Positions 40,331-62,737 of a DNA stretch of 64,000 bases are shown here, piece after piece. Each line of letters begins with the position of its first letter. The stretch's first letter is position 1. Below the pieces are notes generated by a model. That model was given only the letters and a program-made list of their open reading frames with translations. It was not told the DNA's origin and did not search any database. Source of the stretch: Schmidtea polychroa (Eukaryota); the NCBI GenBank assembly GCA_044892525.1, contig CM097887.1:1240001-1304000 (forward strand), read 5' to 3'. The translations under genes and the position numbers were made by a program.

Positions 40331-40869
40331 AGCATAAAATATAAAGTGTGATTCGTTAGATATGAAGCCTATAGGTATGTTATTCTTAAAAAGGTAAACT
40401 ATAAATAATTATGGATACAATTTTAGTTACAAGAATATAAATTATCAATAATTATATTTTGATTATAAAATAGAGAGTATAAATAAGTATATAGATCATG
40501 TAGGTATCTTGTTCTTAAAAGTATAAACTATAAATGGTGCAAAATATAAATCATAATTAATTATATATAACATTCGAAATATTAAGTATAAATAATTATA
40601 TATTTCAAAAAAAAAAAGAGATAATTATAGATAAAGGTTAGCTACAAAAATGAATGGTTCACCTGAGTGCCGATCTTAAAAACCTCAATTATAGGTAGTT
40701 GGGTGTTAAACAATTATATATAAATTACGAGCGGTCGTAGGTTATCGAAGTATTAATGGTAAATAACCCTACAAAACTATAAAGTATAGTAATGCAAATC
40801 ATAAACCCGGAAAATGGCAGGTACCTCATAAAATGTCGTCGAATTTTATTCTACCCCTAAAATATGTAT

Positions 40870-41730
40870 TGTTGGGTTTTTAATGCAAGTCGGTACTACG
40901 GTCTGACTCCTTTGTGTTCTTTTCCAAATAAATAAATAAATAAATAACCCAACACAAAATCTTTATTGACACTGATGCAGTTACACTTTTACACTTGTAT
41001 TAGTTTACTCACACTTGATACAATCAGGTTTTGTCTGCACTTTTCAATTTATTAACAAATCTCACGCAGGGGTAGATCTTCCAACGGGATATGTCCCTTT
41101 CTGGTACGTTCGATTTTTAAATGGTTTAATTTCTACTAACTTTAATATTTCCCTTTTCGCTCTCTTCAAACTTCTATTTTCTTTTCTTCGACCAACTGGC
41201 ATTTTGTTTTCTTGCCAGTTGCTTTTATACTCGTTTAATAATTGACTTTATTTTTGCCAATTATCTTTGGTCCTATTTCCCCCCGGGCTTCCTCTTGGAG
41301 ATCTAATTTAATTGAATGGAATTTGTTTGACGGCGCTTTTTACTTTTTATCCGGCTAAATTAATTGCCTTCCCGAAATTGGATTTCTCAATTCGCTCGGG
41401 TTTTCCATTGTATCGGGTTTCCCATTAGCTCGGGTTCTCCATTAGCTCGGGTTTCCCATTAGCTCGGGTTTTCCATTAGTTAATTAATTTTTAATTAATT
41501 TTTGTTTTTTGTAATTTATTCCTTTTAGGGACCCCCCATTGATTTTATTTTATTATAGCTGAACTCGTCTCATTATTTCGCATCCGCCCATACCAGTTTC
41601 CCCAGAAAATATTCATTTTTTAAAATTTTTGATTTTTAATTAATATTTTGTACTTTAAATTTTTATTCTGAATTTGGTGTTTTTGTCAATTTTCACCTCA
41701 TTTTTGTGCCTCCCTTGTTGAACCCCAACA
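40870..41730 (-). repeat. 3' LTR (861 bp)
   Basis: Direct repeat of 52250-53284; 5 copies of an internal 17-mer. Confidence 0.95.
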
Positions 41731-41746
41731 TATCTCCCCCCTTTAA
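41731..41746 (-). other. Polypurine tract
   Basis: Minus strand AAAGGGGGGAGATA immediately before the 3' LTR TGTTGGGG. Confidence 0.85.
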
Positions 41747-43174
41747 TTTAGATTCGACCTCGAATCTGCATATAATAAGTCTAATTTACCATACAGTAAT
41801 AACAATAATAATAATAGTAATAAAAATGGATTGCTATCTACCTATTTTAGCTATTGCCTTTGCCAATGATTTTAAATCTGAGATATTTTATTTTAAAATT
41901 TCCTTATTCGACTCCCCCCCATCATCCTCACACTACTTAATATAAATAATACTGTTAATACTAATAACAATAATAACGACGATAATAATACTACCGATAA
42001 TAATAATAACAATAATAATTCCTACCGATAACAATAGTAAAGATAATAACAATAATAACAATAATAATAATAACAATAACAATAATAACAATAATAACAA
42101 TAATTATTATACTTAATTATTATATATAATTATTATATTATGATTTTTTTTTTGAATAATAATGATAATAATAATACTGCTAATAATTCCTAATGNNNNN
42201 NNNNNNNNNNNNNNNNNNNNNNNNNNNNNNNNNNNNNNNNNNNNNNNNNNNNNNNNNNNNNNNNNNNNNNNNNNNNNNNNNNNNNNNNNNNNNNNNNNNN
42301 NNNNNNNNNNNNNNNNNNNNNNNNNNNNNNNNNNNNNNNNNNNNNNNNNNNNNNNNNNNNNNNNNNNNNNNNNNNNNNNNNNNNNNNNNNNNNNNNNNNN
42401 NNNNNNNNNNNNNNNNNNTCCTAGATTGGAAAACTAATTTAATTTTCCTGATAATAATAATAATACTAATAATAATTAATAATGATGATGATAATAATTG
42501 TAATCGATAATATTACTTTATTGATTTTTTTAGATTATAGAAACTTTTATTTATTGAAAACAGGTGTATTGTTTTTCAAAAAACTATTTAATGCATAGTA
42601 AAGTTATTTGAAATTAATTACAATTTTACTCATTCCCTTACCTAAGCATATTCAAAAGTCAATAAAACAGTTAAAATTAAATTCTTGTAATATCAGTAAA
42701 TTTGTTTTTATATTTTTCCAACAAGAATAAAGTTGTAAATAAATTTTTTGAAAATAATATTTCGTTTTAATCTTTCATCTATTTATTTATCTTCAAATCA
42801 TTTACAAGAGATGAGTATTACCTCGAGCAATTTCAATTGAAATTTCTTGAAAAAATAAACTTATTTTTAGAATCGATTGTTAAATTTTATTATTATTTAC
42901 AAAATATATAAATTAAAAATATGAATTTTACAATAAATCTAATTTTCAAAAATTTTTTTTTTCCAATCCACATTCTCAGAGAAATTTCAATAACCGACAT
43001 AATTGAATTCTCTTTTAGAACAAGGATAATTGACGGCGAAACTTCAATGAGTTTCCCCAAATTGCCTCTCAGATAGCCAATGATTTTAATGCATTAAATG
43101 GCTTCTGATTGGCTGCTTTTTCTTCCATTAATAGGTAAGAAATTTTATTTTTTCTTCATATTTTTTTAATTCAG

Positions 43175-43747
43175 GAACAAAATGAGAAAAAGATTATTAC
43201 TGGAAATCAATGTTCTGGGGGTGCATTCAATTCTAATACGTTTAACAAATTATGCTACTTCTCTGAGAAGCACCCAAAAATTACTTTGGAATCAACTAAG
43301 AAAACACGGCGAATTATGTGACGTAGCCTTGATTGTTGGTCAAAAAAAATCTTAGCCCATAGAATTGTGTTATCTGCATGTAGTCCTTATTTTAAAGCTA
43401 TGTTTACTGGCGAATTATCTGAATCACTACAAAATGAAGTAATTAAATATTTGGTTATCTTTATCAAACGATATTAGGTAACATTAAGGGATATCGATGA
43501 AAGTGCTGTTGAAACATTGGTAGAATTTTGTTATACATCTCAAATTGTTATTGAAGAGTGGAATGTACAGTGTTTACTACCAGCTGCTTGTTTATTACAA
43601 TTATCAGAAATTCAAGATGTTTGTTGTGAATTTTTAAAACAGCAGCTTGGTCCATCTAATTGCTTAGGTATCCGAGCTTTTGCTGATACTCATGCTTGTA
43701 ATGACTTATTAACGATTGCTGATAAATTTACACACCATAATTTTCAA
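43175..43747 (+). pseudogene. KLHL20: KLHL20/Diablo-like BTB-BACK 5' fragment, frameshifted and truncated, introns retained, inside the LTR element
   Basis: YFSEKHPKITLE / [20 protein letters not shown] / [26 protein letters not shown]-[38-nt intron 43439-43477 region]-VTLRDIDE...[42 protein letters not shown]...HHNFQ. Two frameshifts; no kelch repeats follow. Confidence 0.85.
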
Positions 43748-45093
43748 GTACACTTTATTTATTATTACCTCAAGATCGTCCTCTTATGCAGGTGGATAAA
43801 TTTTGTGTTAATATAAACTTATATTGATTATTTATTATATTGTGTAAAATAACTTTCAGATTCTTTGATGATTTAACACAATAAATTGAAACATTAATTA
43901 TCGCAATTGTCACTGTATTAACTGGAAATCGAAAATCTATTTCCAACTTAAAATGGTACGCAGAGACATGAATATTGTTGATTTCGAAGCGAATATGAAA
44001 CCATGAAGTATGTAGATATTAGCCCCATAGACCACTATGAGTTATATAGATTCCATTTCTGAATTAGGATGAATTTTGTAGATTTTTAATTGATTTGCAC
44101 TCGAAAATTTGGTGTTTAAATGGTCACAATGAACTCAAAGATCTATTCTCACCACTTCTATGATACAAGATGCTTTCAAGTCATTAACGTATAAATCAAT
44201 CCTAAAAATTATTATATATTTGTATTTAAAATTTCATTGAGATTTTCCAATTTTTTTTTTCACTGTAACTGCAAACTCAGCCTTCAATAAATCAGGGTAA
44301 AATAAGTTGAAAACGAATGCGCATTAAGGAACAAATTAGTGATTGCCTTCTGTTATCGTGGGAAAAGAAGTAAGCGCATTCCAATCTGTAAGAGAAGACT
44401 ACGAAAAATGTGGAAAGATCTCGAATAATAATGATTCCAGATAATGAAAAATTTTTGTTGAGTTTTCTGTTCTGGTTATTGCAAATTTTTCTGCAGACAA
44501 ATTAATTTGACAGAGTTTTTATTTGTTATTAAAAATTTATTATGAAATCCTCTTTCTGGCAGCAGGGATTATAAGAGTTTCCTTTTCAAACTCCAGGAGA
44601 AAGAAAATTTGAATTTATATATTTCTATTTGGATTTTAGGGAGTAAGTTATTTAATCTTTATTAATTTCTATTTTTAATCATTTGAATAAATATTTTTAT
44701 CCAATAAATTAATAATTTTCGTCTATACTCAAATTTTATGCATAGATATAGATAAATAGTTTTGGATAAATATCGATATAGAGACACCGAGATACATAGA
44801 GAAACTTATAAACAAATATAGATTTAGATAAAAATATAGTTCCATTTATTCATAAACGGTTTCAATGGAAAAATCAATGACTACTGACAACTACACACTT
44901 CCAATTGTCGTCCAGGGTAGCCAAACTCCGACAATTGGGAATGTGTATGTTGTTATTGAAAGTTTTATTTATTATTTATACATTTTCCCTTTAATTATTT
45001 GGGATTTAACTGATGAGCTACCAATTAATAAATGAGACAACGCGAGTTCAACATTATTTATTTTTTATAAATATTATATATATATATATTAAT

Positions 45094-46563
45094 TTAGTTC
45101 ATTTTTATTTCCAATTGTTTGGTTCCATACCGATACCGTATTATTGTTTCTTCCCGTTCATAGATTACCCCATCGATGGTTACAGTCTCCCCAACATCAA
45201 TATTTGAAGGGTTTTTTCTTTTTCTCGCTTGTCGACATTCGGGCATTGGACCATACTCAAGTGTTGGGTGTATTCTTACCATCGAGACACTTATCATTAC
45301 TGAAACACATTTTTGTGAAATTTCCAAAAACGATTCGGTGGCCCACTTTAATGGAATTAATGGATTTTCAGTCTCCATCTCCACATTCTCCTCGCTTGTC
45401 AAGTCAATTTGTTCTGCTTCCATTACATCGTCAACCAGAATTTGTGCCACTTTCTCCGCTATTGTAGTTGATGCTGATGGTACCTCTCGAAGTTTTTTAT
45501 ATTCCTCCAACGAATATTTCTTTGATGGTAGGTTTTTGGGCACTGGTATATCATCAATCCATTGATTTTCCACTCGTTGATATACCTTGCGAATGCTCTT
45601 CACATCCTCTAGAGCCGAATGCACACCGATTTGTGTTTCTTCTCCACATATTTCTCTCACTACCGTTTGTAATTTGAACCATTCTCCTTTCCTGGTTACT
45701 CCCATGTTCTGAAGTATTGGTGCTGCTGCTAGATCTCGAATGCCGTACAATTGTTCAATCCATATCCCCAAGTATTGTAATTCTGCATGCAAATCATGGC
45801 CGATCAATATTTTGCCTACTGTCAAGCGTTGTATCTCTTTCATTGCCACATATTGATCACATTGGTTCCTGCTGGCCACTTCTGTAATTCCATGGATCCT
45901 TGAATTAAAATGTCGGATTTTTCCTCTTGGAGTGAGGTACACATCTTTTACTACTTTCCCATAATAATTCATAATTGCTATTGCTAAAGGGACCATTTTC
46001 CCTTGCTCTGATGTGCCATATTCAGCATCAATGAATAATATTCTACTGCGGATTTCTTCTAGATCCATTTCTTTTCTGAGAAACGACATTTTCTTTTTCA
46101 ACATTTCCTTTGAAATTTTCAATAACATTGGGTCTTCTCCTTCAATTAAATGCATCTGTGGTACCTCATCCGCTTCATTCTCAGTTCTGATTTCCACCAC
46201 CAACGTTGTCTCCTCATTCGCTGCTCGTAGTGTTCTCCACATGAAGTCCTTCTGCAGCTTCCACGATGTGAATTTTCGAAGTTACCACCATATTGTATTA
46301 TCGTTCTTCAGCACTTCCACTGTACCTATGATCACGTGTATGTGATATACTTCCTTCCGAGACAACTCAATTTCATCTGTCAATTTCAATTCGGAATTTC
46401 TCCTTATTGTAAGCATTCGTATCTTCATTCTTCTGTCATCTATCCGCAAATAATTTGGAATTTGTAAATTTTCATTGATTTCGTATAATTGTTGGCTGGC
46501 ATGATTTTTTTGCATCTTGAAGTAACTGTCGTAGGTGGATCTTGTCCATTGTACTTGTTCCAT
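45094..46563 (-). CDS. DEDDh 3'-5' exonuclease (ISG20/REX4-like), with one in-frame TAA at 46282-46284
   Basis: ExoI FIDAEY, ExoII LIGHDLHAEL, ExoIII HSALED. ORFs 46282-46563 and 45094-46242 are in the same frame, separated only by TAA plus 13 open codons. Confidence 0.8.
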
Positions 46564-46999
46564 TTTTGCTAAAATAGTTATAATTTAACGTTTGAATTTA
46601 ATTTACTTTTAAAACTAGGGCTGAGATGAAGTATCCAAAGGATACTGTCCCAGCTACTAGCTGTATAAATAATAATAATAATAATAATAATTACCGTTTA
46701 GTTAATTGTTGATATATTTTTTTTTTTGAAAGTTAATGGAGTTTAATGGATTTTACCCTCTTTTAATACCCTTATGAAAATTCCCTTAACCCCGTTTTTC
46801 TCTCCCCCTTAACACAGCGCTAACCAATCAAATTGATTCTTTCCGTTGACATTGAAAAGTGCAGATTCACAAGTAAAATAAAATGAAATATTGATCATAT
46901 CCATAATGAAATAAAATATTAATAATATCCATAAAATATTTATACTATATTACTACTACTACTTTATCAATTTTTTGCATGCAAAGTATTTATGTCTTA

Positions 47000-49900
47000 C
47001 TACACAAATGTTTCTTCATAAACGATCCAAGGTCTCGCAATCTCGGATCGATTCGTAGAAGGTTTGGGTATTGCTCGAAATTCAATTAGCACAATGATAA
47101 TGAGAATAATGAGAGAGATTGTTATAATGAGAGTAGTTATTAATAATGTTACACACACAATTTCACTGTCAGTTTTTAATGACGATATGGTTTCGTTATT
47201 AGTCATTGACTCATTGATGCTAGAAAAGATGATTACGTTGGCAGAGCTAGGGGTTTGGTTGGACTGATTTGATTTGTTTCGATTTCCATACTGCGAGTTA
47301 ATAGATGGAATTTGCACAATTTTATTTTCCACTAAAGTTAATTGCCATAGATTTGAAAATAGATAACGTCTATAGTATTTTATTTTAATGAACACAAATT
47401 TTGACGTCGATATTGGTGAACGTTGACGAAAAGTTAATATTTGAGATTTATTTTTTTCATTTAATATCGATTGAATTTTTCCATAATAATATAAAATAGC
47501 TTTTTGATTGGGCTCCGCTTGTCGGGTAACATTCACTAATTGATTGAGAATATGAAAAGTAACCCGATTTGTTTCATTAACTAATCGTATCATATGTTGA
47601 CTAGAGTGTATTCTGATCCATTGACTATCAATTTCAGTTCCGTTTTCGTATAAAGATTTTTCATAATAGTGAATCAGAATATTATAGTTATGATGTAATT
47701 TTAAATTTGCATACTTTATAAAGGGTTTTCTGCTATTCAATGTATCTATCGCATAATTTTGAAAAACTGCTTTTACTTGTTGGGATTCCTGGGGTTCCCA
47801 ATATATGTCAATTCCATTTACCAGTGGTTCAATTGATACTCGATTATGTAATCTCTTTGTCCATACTGGGGTTGATTTAATGGTATTATTTGGTCTATAA
47901 TTCATATTGAAATTATCTGGTTTCTCTCTAAACTGTTCTCCTACTAGCTCTTTAAAGTTCATAGTTTTTAAGTGCGCTAAATTACACTTATTTGTTTCTA
48001 CATTATAAACAAGAATCGATTCCCCTGTTTGACAATGTGTTTGTTTCATATTACAGAATGGATGAGTTTGTAATTTTCCCGTATCATCATCGAAAGCTCC
48101 TTCGAACTCTCTCAACTCCGTGAGATATTCTTCTAGCACCACTGTTTGCTGAATAATTTTACCGTTCATTTTATATGGTTCACCTTCACAGTCGCCATTT
48201 GCTTTCATAACTCCCTTTACAATTATTGTTTCTCGTATTCTATGGTTCAATTTTGCCTTTAAACGAATTTCTGGACTTATTTTTAATTCTCCTGTTTGAA
48301 ATGCTGCTAGACAGTTTTCTGGAAGCACCTCGACTGGCCTAGGTATCGCATGCATTTTTATGAGTGACGTATGGCTCCATTTACCACAATAAAATACAAA
48401 TGTTGTATGTTTGACAATACACTCTCTCACTTGAGTTCTTCGCAGATCAGACTCCTGATACACATAATATTTTACGTCATTTTCTATTTTTAAACTGCTC
48501 GGATACGCACCTGGGCATTCCGACATATCTACTACCGAATAAACTTTTCCCATTTCAGTTTGGGAACAATCGTACGCAACTAAAGATGATGTCTGTGTAA
48601 TTATTGCACAAAACGTAATCACCATAAACATCGCCCATGGAAATATCATAGTTTTTCTTAGTTCTGGCTTAACTCTTTCATTTACTCGTCTTTGGGGTGG
48701 ACTCATTTCTTGCTTCTCATTTTTCTTTTCTGTTAGAGATGAACACAGTGTTTTCCAACCACCTTTTTCGTTTACCCAGCTCATTAAATATTCGTTTACT
48801 AGCCGGGCAGCGATGTCTATCAAATTTTCTAACTTATCTGACCTTGCGAACGTATGCGTTCCAATTTCTAAAACAACATAAGTTAAAGCTATTATTATAA
48901 CTTCTTTATTAATTTCATTTTTTGCCAAATTTTCAATTACTGATCTCTCGCAAAATGTATTCTCTTCGCCAAATTTCTGCATCACTTCAGGAAGCCTATT
49001 CTTCATCTCTTTAACTATTTCTTTCAGTTCATCATCTACCTCTACTTCTATGTCGAACATTGGATATACTGCTTTAACGAGATGTTTCAACATTTTCTTA
49101 GTTTCGTCGACGTCTTGTTCTAGCCTCACTAAATATTTCTTTATTTCATATAAAGTTCTAACTTTCTTATTTTTGATTTCACCATTTATTTCGCCTTCAG
49201 GTACAAGTGGCTCTCCTTGTACGTCTGGTTCTGTGGACTGATCTTTGTTATCAGGATCTTTTTGCTCATTATCACTAACGATTTCATCAATTTCTTTATT
49301 TCCCTTAACTTTTTCATCTTGTTCCTCTGTGTCAGGCTTGTTAGACTCAATATTTGCTTCTAAACTCACTCCTTTTACTACGACTATATGGTTCACTAAA
49401 TATCCCACTCGTCCATCTCGGATCAAATATCCGTTTTCATCCAGCTCTTGTGGTACACACCCACAATCAAATAGGTATTCATCATCGTCAAGTTCTTCAC
49501 CTTTGTACATTACTATAATAATTCCATCTTTTCCCAGCGTTTCAGCCGCTCTCTTCCGCAATTTTCGGACCTTTGCACACCAATGCTCGTCTACATATTC
49601 CGTTTTGCCATATCCCTCATAATCTAATGCTATCAAAAATGGCTTTAACTCTACTCTTGCCTTTCTGAGCTCCTTGCCCAATCTTTGCAATAAACTTCTT
49701 AATAACTTGGCATATCTGGTTTTCACATGTAAATATGGTCGTATTGCATTCACTATTTTTAGTTTATCGTTTTCCTCCATTTCTAATTTCTCAATAATCT
49801 GTAACTTCTCATTGATTTCATCTTCATCTCCAATATATAACGCATCATTCAATTCCTCTAATATCTCCCTTGAATTCCTTTTGTCTATTATTTTACTGCT

Positions 49901-50371
49901 CATTATTTCATCACTAGTAATTACATTTTCCATTTTTAATTCATTTGTACTCCCTGGTATAAATCCACAATCTACCAAAAATTCGTCATTTTCAAACAAT
50001 CTCTCATTAAATCTCAACTCTATCATGCATCCTTCCTTTTTTTCTTTTAATTTATTCTTTAAATCATTTACACAATCATTTGCCTCACAACGACAACATA
50101 ATACACTTTTATCAATCTCGTTTACTACTTCCACCAAGATGGAATCTAACCCGGTTTTCTCTCTCAAAGCTTTTCCAAATATTTTCATTAATTCTTTAAT
50201 TTCTTCTTTATACTTTGGATTCATATTATAGTAGTTAACGCACAAGCTAATTACACTTTTTATCTTTCTCATACTCAAAGATATTTGACTTAATTCTCTC
50301 AACGATTTGATCACTTTAGCCGACTCTATTTCATTATTTCCAATTAGTTTTTCGATTCTGGTCATTATCAT
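47000..50371 (-). CDS. 1123-aa polyprotein: 2x(helical + ubiquitin-like), Bcl-2-like domain, internal signal/anchor, chuvirus/gB-like env ectodomain, TM, short tail
   Basis: Ubl-like NDCVNDLKNKLKEK..LRFNERLFENDEFLVDCG and KVRKLRKRAAETLG..MYKGEELDDDEYLFDCG; BH2-like LMSWVNEKGGWKTL; hydrophobic IFPWAMFMVITFCAIITQ; env motifs VAYDC, YQE, YCGKWSHTS, GDCEG; TM aa 1071-1096. The ORF is well supported; domain labels are by-eye. Confidence 0.8.
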   Translation of the reverse strand: MIMTRIEKLIGNNEIESAKVIKSLRELSQISLSMRKIKSVISLCVNYYNMNPKYKEEIKELMKIFGKALREKTGLDSILVEVVNEIDKSVLCCRCEANDCVNDLKNKLKEKKEGCMIELRFNERLFENDEFLVDCGFIPGSTNELKMENVITSDEIMSSKIIDKRNSREILEELNDALYIGDEDEINEKLQIIEKLEMEENDKLKIVNAIRPYLHVKTRYAKLLRSLLQRLGKELRKARVELKPFLIALDYEGYGKTEYVDEHWCAKVRKLRKRAAETLGKDGIIIVMYKGEELDDDEYLFDCGCVPQELDENGYLIRDGRVGYLVNHIVVVKGVSLEANIESNKPDTEEQDEKVKGNKEIDEIVSDNEQKDPDNKDQSTEPDVQGEPLVPEGEINGEIKNKKVRTLYEIKKYLVRLEQDVDETKKMLKHLVKAVYPMFDIEVEVDDELKEIVKEMKNRLPEVMQKFGEENTFCERSVIENLAKNEINKEVIIIALTYVVLEIGTHTFARSDKLENLIDIAARLVNEYLMSWVNEKGGWKTLCSSLTEKKNEKQEMSPPQRRVNERVKPELRKTMIFPWAMFMVITFCAIITQTSSLVAYDCSQTEMGKVYSVVDMSECPGAYPSSLKIENDVKYYVYQESDLRRTQVRECIVKHTTFVFYCGKWSHTSLIKMHAIPRPVEVLPENCLAAFQTGELKISPEIRLKAKLNHRIRETIIVKGVMKANGDCEGEPYKMNGKIIQQTVVLEEYLTELREFEGAFDDDTGKLQTHPFCNMKQTHCQTGESILVYNVETNKCNLAHLKTMNFKELVGEQFREKPDNFNMNYRPNNTIKSTPVWTKRLHNRVSIEPLVNGIDIYWEPQESQQVKAVFQNYAIDTLNSRKPFIKYANLKLHHNYNILIHYYEKSLYENGTEIDSQWIRIHSSQHMIRLVNETNRVTFHILNQLVNVTRQAEPNQKAILYYYGKIQSILNEKNKSQILTFRQRSPISTSKFVFIKIKYYRRYLFSNLWQLTLVENKIVQIPSINSQYGNRNKSNQSNQTPSSANVIIFSSINESMTNNETISSLKTDSEIVCVTLLITTLIITISLIILIIIVLIEFRAIPKPSTNRSEIARPWIVYEETFV

Positions 50372-51855
50372 TGTTGTTTTTCACTTTCTAAATCATCTTT
50401 TATAACTCTCCTTTTCGACTCTTTTTCATTCAATTCCTCTTGCGACTCATACATCATGTGATTATTGTAGTCCTCTTCTGATTCAAACTTTGACATCAAT
50501 CGATCCAAACGTCGACCCATTTCTCTCACTTCGCTTTCAATTCTTTCATTAAAATTATCTGGCTGAATAAAAGCTACATTATCCATCTGCGGTTTGTCAC
50601 TCTGAAACCTAATCGATTTCTTTAATATGGGCCTTTGGAATTTATCCATATTTCTTGGACATGATCTAGCCATGTGTCCATAACTTCTGCATGAATGACA
50701 TTGAATTTGTCCTTGTAGATTTACTTTATCTCTCTGCGGTGATGGTGATGTTGATGTTGATCTTGACCTGGCAAAACAATTTCGTGACACATGCCCTTTT
50801 CTTCCGCAATTAAAGCATTGCAAGTTATCATTAGTTCTCTGCTCATTAATGTTCGCTTTAGTGAAACTTTTCGCACCATTTCCTTTTAACCAATCAGGCC
50901 ACATTTGCCTTGGACTCCGTTGTACATTATTTTTGGACCAGCATTGATTGCTGTCATGTCCCATTCTTTGGCAATTATCACACTGAATCGGAATTGGGCT
51001 TCTCTGTATTCTATTTTTAAACCAGCATTGGTTAACATGGTGTCCAATCCTTTGGCAATGACTACATTGGATGGGACCTTCCTTTCCATCTATTTGAATA
51101 TCTGTTGACTTGTTCGACTCAAATTTGGATCTAAATTTTGGTGATGGACTACTTGTTTGTTGAAAACGATTGTTTCTTATTGGGGTTACTGATCTTTCGC
51201 TTGCGCCTGAGATGACTGCAAACGACTGTGATTTTGACTGTGTGCTTTTTAAATTTAGCTCAATTTTCATTGCCTTTTTGATCAATTCATCAAAGTCATT
51301 AAAATCAACATAACACAAAGCCTTTTTAATTTCTTTCTTTACTCCTGACAAGAATTGATCCTGCAATAATTCTCTTACCTGCTTTGCCATCTCGGCCTGT
51401 TCTGGTTTCACTTCGAACGCTTTCTCTGCAAGAGTTGATAAATGATAAGCAAACTCACTTACCGATTCCTCTGGCTTTTGTACGCGGTTATAGAATTTCT
51501 GTCGCATTATCCGTTTGATATCCTCTCCGATTAATTTCGTGGCTAACGCGTCTTTCAACTTGGTCCAGTCATTTGCTACTATTCTTTTATCAATTTGTTG
51601 CCACGCTTCTCTGGCTGCTCCTTTTAGGTATAGCGGTAATCTTTGCACCATTATCGATTGGCTCCATCCATAGGCCGTCGCATACATATAGTAATCTGCC
51701 ATAAAATCGACAAATTCCAGCGGATCACCACCGTACTGATCCACAGGTAGTTTTTGACAACTCGCATAATCATTGCCTTCCTTGCCGTTGCCCACCGTGG
51801 ACACAGGTGTTTCATCATTGTTATTTGTATTATTGGTTAGTCTTTGGGTACTCAT
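50368..51855 (-). CDS. gag: Gag (retrotransposon capsid + four CCHC zinc knuckles)
   Basis: YGGDPLEF..F..Y..Y..AYGWS...RLPLYLKGAAREAW, RVQKPEESVSEFAYHL, LLQDQFLSG; four CX2CX4HX4C motifs. First ATG at 51855 (the ORF track starts at an upstream TTG). Confidence 0.9.
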   Translation of the reverse strand: MSTQRLTNNTNNNDETPVSTVGNGKEGNDYASCQKLPVDQYGGDPLEFVDFMADYYMYATAYGWSQSIMVQRLPLYLKGAAREAWQQIDKRIVANDWTKLKDALATKLIGEDIKRIMRQKFYNRVQKPEESVSEFAYHLSTLAEKAFEVKPEQAEMAKQVRELLQDQFLSGVKKEIKKALCYVDFNDFDELIKKAMKIELNLKSTQSKSQSFAVISGASERSVTPIRNNRFQQTSSPSPKFRSKFESNKSTDIQIDGKEGPIQCSHCQRIGHHVNQCWFKNRIQRSPIPIQCDNCQRMGHDSNQCWSKNNVQRSPRQMWPDWLKGNGAKSFTKANINEQRTNDNLQCFNCGRKGHVSRNCFARSRSTSTSPSPQRDKVNLQGQIQCHSCRSYGHMARSCPRNMDKFQRPILKKSIRFQSDKPQMDNVAFIQPDNFNERIESEVREMGRRLDRLMSKFESEEDYNNHMMYESQEELNEKESKRRVIKDDLESEKQQ

Positions 51856-52227
51856 TAAATTCTCTATTAGTGTTTGGCTTCTCAATTTATAAAATGATCA
51901 GGTCAACACAGGCTTTACTCGTCTAAGATTCAAAGTGTTACAATTACAAAATTTACCTTTCGTTTTAATTTTGACTTTTCAACAATCAATCGTTACAAAT
52001 TTTTCCACTTTGCTTCAATTATAAAATCACCACTTTAATAATTCTCAAATAAATGTTCACCACTTTCAAATAAACGTTTCACTTCAATATTTATTTATTT
52101 AATTATTATTATCTTTTTCCAAATTTTTCCGATACTTTACTAATCTCAACAAATTTTCACCGATCTTTTTATTCTTCGGTATCACTCAAATATTATCACA
52201 ATTTCAACAAATCTTCACCGACTTTTG

Positions 52228-52245
52228 ATCACGCCGGGCTCACCA
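52228..52245 (-). other. Primer-binding site, tRNA-Trp-like
   Basis: Minus strand TGGTGAGCCCGGCGTGAT, 4 nt after the 5' LTR. Its complement ATCACGCCGGGCTCACCA resembles the metazoan tRNA-Trp 3' end (ATCACGTCGGGGTCACCA). Confidence 0.7.
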
Positions 52246-52249
52246 AATA

Positions 52250-53284
52250 TGTTGGGTTTTTAATGCAAGTCGGTACTACGGTCTGACTCCTTTGTGTTCT
52301 TTTCCAAATAAATAAATAAATAAATAACCCAACACAAAATCTTTATTGACACTGATGCAGTTACACTTTTACACTTGTATTAGTTTACTCACACTTGATA
52401 CAATCAGGTTTTGTCTGCACTTTTCAATTTATTAACAAATCTCACGCAGGGGTAGATCTTCCAACGGGATATGTCCCTTTCTGGTACGTTCGATTTTTAA
52501 ATGGTTTAATTTCTACTAACTTTAATATTTCCCTTTTCGCTCTCTTCAAACTTCTATTTTCTTTTCTTCGACCAACTGGCATTTTGTTTTCTTGCCAGTT
52601 GCTTTTATACTCGTTTAATAATTGACTTTATTTTTGCCAATTATCTTTGGTCCTATTTCCCCCCGGGCTTCCTCTTGGAGATCTAATTTAATTGAATGGA
52701 ATTTGTTTGACGGCGCTTTTTACTTTTTATCCGGCTAAATTAATTGCCTTCCCAAAATTAGATTTCTCCGGCTAAATTAATTGCCTTCCCGAAATTGGAT
52801 TTCTCAATTCGCTCGGGTTTTCCATTGTATCGGGTTTCCCATTAGCTCGGGTTCTCCATTAGCTCGGGTTTCCCATTAGCTCGGGTTCTCCATTAGCTCG
52901 GGTTTCCCATTAGCTCGGGTTCTCCATTAGCTCGGGTTTCCCATTAGCTCGGGTTCTCCATTAGCTCGGGTTTCCCATTAGCTCGGGTTCTCCATTAGCT
53001 CGGGTTTCCCATTAGCTCGGGTTTTCCATTAGTTAATTAATTTTTAATTAATTTTTGTTTTTTGTAATTTATTCCTTTTAGGGACCCCCCCATTGATTTT
53101 ATTTTATTATAGCTGAACTCGTCTCATTATTTCGCATCCGCCCATACCAGTTTCCCCAGAAAATATTCATTTTTTAAAATTTTTGATTTTTAATTAATAT
53201 TTTGTACTTTAAATTTTTATTCTGAATTTGGTGTTTTTGTCAATTTTCACCTCATTTTTGTGCCTCCCTTGTTGAACCCCAACA
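52250..53284 (-). repeat. 5' LTR (1035 bp)
   Basis: Direct repeat of 40870-41730 plus an extra 37-bp unit, 8 extra 17-mers and 1 extra C. Confidence 0.95.
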
Positions 53285-54457
53285 GTATTATAAAATAAAA
53301 ATGTAAATTATAAGTGTGAAGATTTTAATGTTTTAGATATTTATATCACTATTGAACGATCAAAAATGATTATAGAAATTAAAGTCGGTCGTTAAATTAA
53401 TTCGCAGACAACTCTATCAGAGGAAGTAGTATTTGACCTGCAAGGACCCAGTAGTGGCCTGTTTTTAAAGTTACTTGAGACTCTGATTCTCTGAAAACCT
53501 CAGTAGGAGTAGGAATCCCAAAACCAATGTCGTTCAGGCATAAATTAGAAAGTCACATTAAAGAGGTAACGACAAATGATAACCTAAGCTCCTTATAGAA
53601 TTAACGGGGACGATACAACACATGAATGGATATAGTTTATAAATTAATAAATGACTTACCAAATGCCCATGAAGCAAATTACCATAAATACCGACAAGCA
53701 TTAGAAGCAGGTTGGCGTCGGAAAATAAAAAAAATTTTTTTCATAAGAGACAGGTTGGAATTATGGCCAATTTTTATTTCGAAATTAGATTAAAAGGCCA
53801 TACACCTGAAATGCTGAAAAGGTTGTTATGAATATAATAGCAGCATACACCCCTTGAACGACTTCACCGACGAAGGGTATTGGAACACAGTTCGACAATA
53901 AGACCGTTCGCCAGCGAAATCTTTCTCTAGGGCTAATTATGGTAAATAATATAAGCTGAATTAAATAATTCAGCTTAAATACAAATGTAAATAAATGATG
54001 CCCATGATGTAAATAATTACATAATAAGGTTAGCTTAACAAAACAACTAAATGCATGTTTTAATTTTTCATTAAAAGTTAAACTAATGGATCTAAGCGAT
54101 TCAGATAAGACGACTACGAGCAAAAAAATAAATTTCAGAGTCAAAGAAAATTTTTGTCTCTGGTTGAATTAGTAATAAAGCATTTATAAGGAAGATCCCT
54201 TTCGATGTTTCTAGGTTGAGGCTATAGGGTGATGATAAGTAACGATTACCCCATTTTTTGGCTATAAATTTGTCATCTAACTTACGACAAGGCACACTAT
54301 CATCATCAGAGGGTAACTATTCGCTCGAACCACTGTTTTACGTTTTAGTAGACTGATAAGAAAGATGAAATTTTAAAAGGAAAATTACCATTAACCATTC
54401 TCATTTAACCACAGAATGTCGCAAGCATGTGATCCCGACGAAGCCGAATAGAGGCAA

Positions 54458-61943: not shown

Positions 61944-62737
61944 TGTTGGGGTTCAACAAGAGAGGTACAAAAATGAGTAGAAAAATCAATAAAAACAATA
62001 AATTCACAACAAAGTAATTAAAGTGCAAAAATATTAATTAAAAATCAAAAAATTTTAAAAACGAATATTTCCCAAGGGATGCCGAAACAATAAGACGAGT
62101 TCAAATATAATAAAATAAAATCAGTGGGGGGGGCTCTAGAGGACTTAATTACAAAAAACTAAAATTAATTAAAAATTAATTAGCTAATGGAGAACCCGAG
62201 CAATGTGAGAGAACCTGTATGGTCAATCAAATTAGTAGGGGCAATTAAATCAGCGGACTAATAATTAAATTGGAAGAAACCATCATAAGAGACGAGCAAA
62301 TTCTTCAAACTAGTTAGAGCGACAAGAGGAAGTTCGAGGGAAATGGATCCGAAATAATTTGACAATGTAAAATCAAATTACGAGATGTATACAAAAGCAA
62401 CCGGCAAGTAAACAGAATTGCCAGTAGGTCGAAGAAACGTAAACGAATAATTTAGCGAAAGTAAATAAAGAAAACTTTGAACTTAGTGATAACTGAATAT
62501 TTTCGAATCGAGCGTACCAGAAATGGACATCTCCCATTGGAAGATTAGGTTTACATTGGTATTGAAAAGTGCAGAGCAAAAAGAGTTGTTTAAAGTGTGG
62601 TTGTGTCAATAAAGAGTGTAATCAAAGTGTAATTGTATTAGTCTCGAATAAATATTCTGTGTTGGGTTGTTTAACTTAATTTCAAAAGGACACCAAGGAG
62701 TCAGGCCATGATACCGTCTTGCACCAAATATCCAACA
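61944..62737 (+). mobile_element. Solo LTR of a sister family of the 40870-53284 element
   Basis: Starts TGTTGGGGTTCAACAAGAGAGGTACAAAAATGAG and ends GCACCAAATATCCAACA. Co-linear with the reverse complement of LTR 40870-41730 but clearly diverged; 4-bp TSD ATAA. Confidence 0.85.

Follow-up and report, generated by a model that had tools for sequence, protein, structure and literature searches.

We found that a stretch of 64,000 nucleotides from Schmidtea polychroa (assembly GCA_044892525.1, contig CM097887.1, positions 1,240,001 to 1,304,000; the window, in whose coordinates all positions are given) holds an LTR element in which the segment at 48734-49129, which precedes a class III (gB-type) env (PF24664), is almost certainly a real Bcl-2-fold domain. 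A Bcl-2-like domain in front of the env had been proposed in a first-pass annotation made from the letters alone, and it was borne out by Pfam, HHalign, an AlphaFold2 model, Foldseek and VIA-align. The element lies on the minus strand at 40870-53284 and has TG...CA ends. Its features are as follows.

52250-53284, minus strand: 5' LTR of 1035 nt, TG...CA (LTR comparison)
40870-41730, minus strand: 3' LTR of 861 nt (LTR comparison)
40866-40869 and 53285-53288: 4-bp target duplication in the flanks of the element
52228-52245, minus strand: primer-binding site (sequence), which we take to resemble the 3' end of tRNA-Trp
41731-41745, minus strand: polypurine tract (sequence)
50368-51897, minus strand: gag with Retrotrans_gag and CCHC knuckles (Pfam; frames)
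49952-50368, minus strand: helical and ubiquitin-like repeat 1 (alignment; match to the ISG15 C-terminal domain profile, E 7e-5)
49445-49879, minus strand: helical and ubiquitin-like repeat 2 (Pfam ubiquitin, E 0.0042; alignment; profile)
48734-49129, minus strand: Bcl-2-fold domain, almost certainly real, alpha1 to alpha8, aa ~418-549 (profiles and model)
48899-48910, minus strand: BH1-equivalent position, with NKEV replacing NWGR (HHalign register; coordinates by arithmetic)
48755-48778, minus strand: BH2 motif with terminal GGW (alignment)
48584-48658, minus strand: internal signal-like segment, predicted anchor of the upstream piece (rule applied by hand)
47864-48583, minus strand: N-terminal part of the gB-type env (Monjiviricetes_fusion, PF24664; Pfam E 3.7e-25)
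47855-47863: junction of a 5.3-kb deletion, with 9-nt microhomology (comparison with a longer copy)
47000-47854, minus strand: remnant of a second membrane protein that ends the polyprotein, including a C-terminal hydrophobic helix
45094-46584, minus strand: accessory frames, a 100-aa piece and a 395-aa DEDD-type exonuclease-like frame (RNase_T, E 0.0074, under the cut-off)
43127-43833, plus strand: captured piece of a BTB-BACK (Kelch-like) host gene, antisense to the element (Pfam)

The two LTRs are identical in 861/861 aligned columns and differ in length only by the number of internal repeats, which marks a very recent insertion. In its LTRs, primer-binding site, polypurine tract and target duplication the window copy is a GAG-ENV-POL errantivirus of the Ty3/gypsy type, and the order of gag, then gB-type env, then PR-RT-RH-IN is found at the family level, the window copy itself being without pol. 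The 5.3-kb deletion has taken the rest (half) of its env together with PR, RT, RH and IN. Furthermore, its gag is out of frame with the downstream ORF, with the break at about 50368-50380, and a 1126-aa stop-to-stop frame at 47000-50380 on the minus strand carries the domain and the env part. We rejected the idea that ORF2 is a natural separate env gene, as it is a frameshift product, and also that the window copy represents a non-autonomous type lacking pol, as it is a simple deletion with microhomology. Contigs from four runs guessed to be RNA span parts of the element, with one contig lacking the Kelch intron, and poly-T loose ends occur in one of these four runs.

To place the window copy among its relatives, the genome was searched (781 Mb, four large contigs), which yielded 1515 candidates, 150 of which were scored for the domain region. 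At least 150 genomic matches to this region are 98-100% identical, the region is stop-free in 147 of the 150 scored matches, and a 3437-aa frame houses 17 of the 150. Comparison with one of these long-frame copies revealed an element of about 17.4 kb and a single frame in the order Gag, two helical and ubiquitin-like (Ubl) repeats, Bcl-2-like domain, signal-like helix, gB-type env and membrane helix, followed by PR, RT, RH and IN; past IN come another signal-like helix, a lumenal stretch and a final membrane helix. Among six further stretches, which were chosen for long frames, the knuckles, domain, env, PR and RT share one frame in five, and in the sixth the frame meets the edge of the stretch before the knuckles.

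Several of these parts merit separate mention. The helical and Ubl module (49445-50368) is the most widespread pre-env part, with 11 matches, and its best PDB profile matches are ISG15. The post-integrase part (47000-47854; aa 2719-3123 of P0001) has a second signal-like helix, a part rich in glycosylation sequons and a last membrane helix; it has no Pfam match and is likely a second surface protein. The DEDD exonuclease-like frame is also present in the longer copy, and the 100-aa piece that precedes it extends to at least 278 aa in locus L135. The BTB-BACK piece has a 39-nt GT-AG intron, and the longer copy has this piece too, at 92%.

Next, we investigated the sequence evidence for the domain. 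A check against PF00452 had been suggested, and aa 452-542 of the window frame do match profile positions 1-100, but the 22.1 bits fall below the cut-off of 31.4 (E 0.0059 with the whole frame as query and 2.3e-4 with a piece of 145 aa). Three family-B copies exceed this cut-off, with 32.2-33.3 bits, and the Pfam Bcl-2 search gave no match in 14 control genomes. In the genome studied here, the Pfam search retrieved host genes, Polinton-borne genes and the sister family B; family E is without a Pfam Bcl-2 match. Families C, D and E were retrieved by env motifs, with Bcl-2 ignored, and all have an alignable domain ending in GGW, as does P0003, from another source, in having an alignable domain; the distance from GGW to the env start is 47-75 residues across families A-E. 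An element-only profile of 15 rows found Bcl-xL/Bcl-2 in all of the 60 rows listed (best E 2.1e-5), and when family B and P0003 were left out, Bcl-xL appeared only at E 0.06, with three unrelated rows ranking above it. When HHalign compared four element families, family B excluded, with seven Bcl-2-like ORFs from this genome, of which one is Polinton-borne and six are host-context or unplaced, it gave P 94.6% and E 7e-8 over 71 columns, and P 94.9% with family B added; homology at the profile level spans BH1-alpha5-alpha6-BH2. Single-sequence searches were less productive: phmmer against the PDB gave no significant match (best E 0.33), and a homologous-protein search was weak, with no match for the single piece and one for the alignment (P0013, among longer proteins; none at near lengths). 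ESM Atlas gave best features of 0.87 and Bcl-2-clan names with recognition below its mark, which we treat as a lead only. Pattern searches for more families returned no match, decayed copies only, or three matches that included one of family C.

The structural evidence points the same way. The AlphaFold2 domain model, built from 17 element-borne rows with no host Bcl-2 in the input, had pLDDT 79.2 and pTM 0.76; a single-sequence fold (pLDDT 38.7) was discarded. When 48,161 chains were searched with VIA-align, whose tool note states that helical bundles may reach Z ~13 by common arrangement, rows 1-34 were all of the Bcl-2 family or fold, with Z from 13.1 to 5.8, and the first unrelated row came at Z 5.3. 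The best match reached Z 13.1 with an rmsd of 3.3 over 130 residues. BH3-binding members lie at Z 10-13, the viral Bcl-2 proteins ASFV A179L, canarypox CNP058, KSHV Bcl-2 and EBV BHRF1 at 11.8-12.9, and the poxvirus proteins N1L, A52, B14 and A46 at 5.8-8.0. The match covers model residues 14-145, hence the domain includes alpha1; the range given at first, 48743-49054, is in frame on the minus strand (aa 443-546 by arithmetic) and the segments quoted for it are present, but it misses this beginning, at aa ~418. Foldseek on the AlphaFold model, another check that had been proposed, returned the Bcl-2 family in all 38 PDB rows listed (TM 0.49-0.62), the best being BAX, BOK and BAK, and viral Bcl-2 proteins top the BFVD list, with no row at E < 0.001 in either database and all E-values weak. 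A lancelet adintovirus protein named Bcl2 is among the BFVD matches. In the model, VIA-align and Foldseek alike, the domain is a helical bundle, alpha1-alpha8, around a central hydrophobic alpha5.

Upon examining the BH motifs, we observed that BH2, recognized at the outset, is kept in all families, and that GGW is invariant in 15/15 rows, these rows having been cut by GGW, with two family-E loci lacking it. The alignment and the HHalign register confirm that NKEV replaces NWGR in the window, and NWGR is substituted differently in each of the five families A-E; the glycine preceding BH1 persists in family B, P0003 and two decayed copies. Canonical BH3 binding needs the Gly and Arg of NWGR, and both are absent in family A. 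The helix first described as BH3-like is alpha2 by position and has no BH3 core (Leu, two residues, hydrophobic, small, Asp); a scan of the pre-env parts in families A, B, C and E did not reveal one either, and alpha2 as a killer BH3 was rejected. The alpha5-alpha6 pattern and BH2 persist across families with only ~50% RT identity. This motif pattern is closer to that expected of a divergent viral-type mimic than to that of a killer, and it leaves canonical BH3 binding in doubt. Directly before the domain, a motif that we take to be AT-hook-like is present in families B, D and E and in outside relatives (L064, L079, L100, P0003, P0012), and absent from families A and C.

The five families hold the domain at the same place before the env. 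In an unrooted domain tree, seven element rows form one group (support 92/94, not starred), which adjoins a host-context gene (L045) and a Polinton-borne gene through a weak join (66/83); given that weak join, a Polinton donor was rejected as a finding. In the RT, env and domain trees alike, A groups with C and D groups with E, and these unrooted trees would fit a single capture before the split of families with ~50% RT identity. Identity between families is 19-38% for the domain, compared with 32-63% for env and 48-88% for RT, so the domain diverges faster. Across 16 pairs, dN/dS of the domain was lowest in family D (0.02-0.04, in the pairs where it was defined) and stayed low in families A (0.05-0.12) and E (0.08-0.09) and in one family-B pair (0.13); family B as a whole spans 0.13-0.43, and family C gave 0.22-0.43 on few changes. 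The upstream linker is about as constrained, with the same values in family D, thus dN/dS indicates a translated and selected frame and no special role of the domain. Among the 30 loci retained after the Pfam search of the genome, 14 are dispersed multi-copy Bcl-2-like genes (L049-L054, L056-L063), and the surroundings of three such loci (context L070-L075) hold frames that by eye resemble the polymerase, packaging ATPase, capsid and integrase of Polintons. Seven near-identical Bcl-2-like genes with intact NWGR (L034-L040) cluster near the end of contig 4, at 89.9-90.8 Mb. A Bak/Bax-like BH3 stretch was found in the same genome.

We then examined the hydrophobic segment between the domain and the env. 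It is present as first noted, at aa ~575-599 before the env start, and comprises basic residues, ~17 hydrophobic residues and small residues at -3 and -1 of a predicted cleavage site that was placed by hand with the small-residue rule. A hydrophobic run precedes the env start in 8/8 loci (mean hydropathy 1.5-2.9), with a small residue at -1 in all eight and at both -3 and -1 in seven. The earlier proposal was that signal-peptidase cleavage here would release a cytosolic, tail-anchored Bcl-2-like protein. After a cut before the env, the helix would stay with the upstream piece, and to that extent the proposal is reasonable; a lone Bcl-2 protein is not what would result, because the frame of longer copies starts with Gag, giving a Gag-Ubl-Bcl-2 precursor; unless trimmed by the protease, the piece left of the signal site would be ~1,100 residues long. 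The domain is probably anchored by the env signal. In P0012 the Ubl, signal and env are present and the Bcl-2-like domain is absent, which indicates that the domain is dispensable in that lineage and that the role of env signal accounts for the helix with or without the domain; anchoring of the Bcl-2-like domain would likely be a by-product of the env signal. P0012 also has four aspartic-protease-like stretches after the env. Mitochondrial tail anchors have basic residues behind the helix. The signal helix here is short and has none behind it; the domain may therefore be unable to get to mitochondrial Bak, and signal peptide peptidase may also cut the helix.

When comparing the element to known systems, we find that the domain and layout have already been published for the planarian Burro elements, and what the present analysis adds is the confirmation of the fold, the spread across the clade and a testable topology. 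The first-pass remark that none was known in LTR retrotransposons does not stand: PMC6431247 reports a BCL2-like motif in Burro, noted by Grohme 2018 (as cited there) for Burro-2, -3 and -4, with a Ubi2/SUMO-like motif before it and the env in frame between it and PR, proposes that Burro meddles with host apoptosis, and relates the Burro env to mononegavirus fusion proteins. Burro/GYPSM1 in that paper shares with our families one polyprotein, Gag CCHC knuckles, ubiquitin/SUMO-like and BCL2-like parts, an in-frame env and PR-RT-RH-IN. Family E carries MATH, ankyrin, TRAF and BIR+RING cargo, the same layout as in Burro1, and its domain aligns with that of the window, making the window domain homologous to the published motif. 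In contrast to Burro (>30 kb, ORF of ~4,900 aa), the window family is compact (~17.4 kb, 3437-aa frame), has two helical and Ubl repeats, shows no MATH, ankyrin or BIR match in the 3123 aa scanned, and has 50% RT-RH identity to family E. The window element is therefore a compact relative of Burro and not a Burro.

Additionally, of the six S. mediterranea errantiviruses with GAG-ENV-POL order in PMC13524379, Smed_errantivirus_1 and _2 resemble the window family in that order, in their gB-type env and in having many young copies, and the Smed_errantivirus env rows of the supplement look, by eye, very close to families A and C. The term 'bcl' has no match in its main text and seven supplementary files, in which the pre-env cargo is undescribed, and it is absent from the passages searched in PMC8532177. 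The Burro section of PMC6431247 makes no mention of a signal anchor. The literature searched, which did not extend to the texts of Grohme 2018 and Lee 2026, contains no functional test of the domain and mentions no signal anchor; the signal-as-anchor topology, the structural confirmation and the clade-wide spread were not found in it. Among viral mimics, A179L, CNP058, KSHV Bcl-2 and BHRF1 share the fold, a divergent BH1 and a C-terminal membrane anchor, the last being predicted in the window domain. Those four are encoded by DNA viruses as free proteins, and their function has been tested, whereas the window domain sits in a polyprotein, is known from sequence and model, and has a predicted anchor that would double as the env signal. 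Vaccinia F1L is reported as a motif-less viral Bcl-2 mimic (PMC2836074). In the same retroelement clade, the Burro1 IAP (B-IAP; Lee et al. 2026, Dev Cell, second hand via PMC13465017) is an anti-apoptotic cargo that is reported to protect stem cells from apoptosis; it differs from the Bcl-2-fold window domain in being a BIR+RING protein in a separate frame that acts on caspases.

Taken as a whole, we give an even chance to the reading that the Bcl-2-fold domain, which probably goes back to a single capture of a host bcl-2 gene, acts as a pro-survival mimic in the viral style, with the env signal tethering it to the cytosolic side of the ER. The ribosome would make Gag-Ubl-Bcl-2, the internal signal would enter the ER, and signal peptidase would cut before the env, leaving the helix as a tail anchor on the left piece; this resembles the capsid-envelope junction of flaviviruses and hepaciviruses. 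The element protease may then trim the domain from Gag, and the domain would dampen Bak/Bax-type killing by the host or ER-stress death in the cells that build particles. The pro-survival function itself is, on this model, about evenly poised: the anti-apoptotic Burro1-type cargo of family E provides context in its favor, and the loss of NWGR, the fast divergence, the unspecific dN/dS and the short helix count against it. The window copy alone could not do most of this, as it has a frameshift after gag and has lost half of its env and all of pol. If the domain works, a Bcl-2 mimic in hundreds of young copies would be a second retroelement route that tunes planarian cell death and regeneration, beside the Burro1 IAP. 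To our knowledge, no Bcl-2 mimic from a reverse-transcribing element has been tested before, and this one would be the first. A broader idea, that a clade extending beyond Burro uses one helix both as env signal and as anchor of a Bcl-2 mimic, pairing the env one-to-one with a death blocker across the ER, with the related Polinton Bcl-2 hinting at a shared host source or exchange, is tentative, and we lean against it.

The strongest competitor, though unlikely, is that the fold works as a protein-binding scaffold that counters innate-immune or autophagy signalling and not as a BH3 trap for Bak/Bax; poxvirus A52, B14, A46 and N1L, and herpesvirus M11 with Beclin 1, are examples. The loss of NWGR in all five families, the fast divergence and the signalling modules among clade neighbours (ISG15-like Ubl, MATH, TRAF, ankyrin) would agree with it, and binding of Beclin 1 or the IP3 receptor goes with an ER anchor; the model, however, scores higher against BH3-binding members (Z 10-13) than against those four poxvirus proteins (Z 5.8-8.0), and BH2 is kept throughout. 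It is less probable still that the domain is a folded spacer for assembly, tying Gag to the membrane beside the env, with any host-directed function lost or secondary. Its fusion behind Gag in one frame, the short fixed distance to the signal in all families and a constraint equal to that of the remaining frame are as such a spacer would predict, but P0012 manages the same signal and env without it, and the retention of BH2 and the alpha5-alpha6 pattern at only ~50% RT identity is harder to reconcile with that role.

We consider it very unlikely that the domain promotes death or membrane permeabilisation in a Bok/Bak-like manner for particle release. BAX, BOK and BAK are the best Foldseek rows and an ER location suits Bok; against this, none of the Foldseek E-values is strong, pro-survival and viral members do at least as well in VIA-align, within ties, and no BH3 core turned up in the pre-env parts scanned from families A, B, C and E. 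Lastly, the Bcl-2 likeness could have arisen by chance in a helical spacer with a GGW, as the weak single-sequence searches and the Z values that helical bundles attain by common arrangement might suggest. This is largely refuted already and has a negligible probability: 34 Bcl-2-fold rows outrank the first unrelated one, HHalign gives E 7e-8, sister copies exceed the Pfam cut-off and the published annotation is independent.

Beyond the element, the window holds a solo LTR of a related, ~70% identical family at 61944-62737, in the opposite orientation and with a 4-bp target duplication, and a long satellite with a 20-bp period that starts at ~11650.
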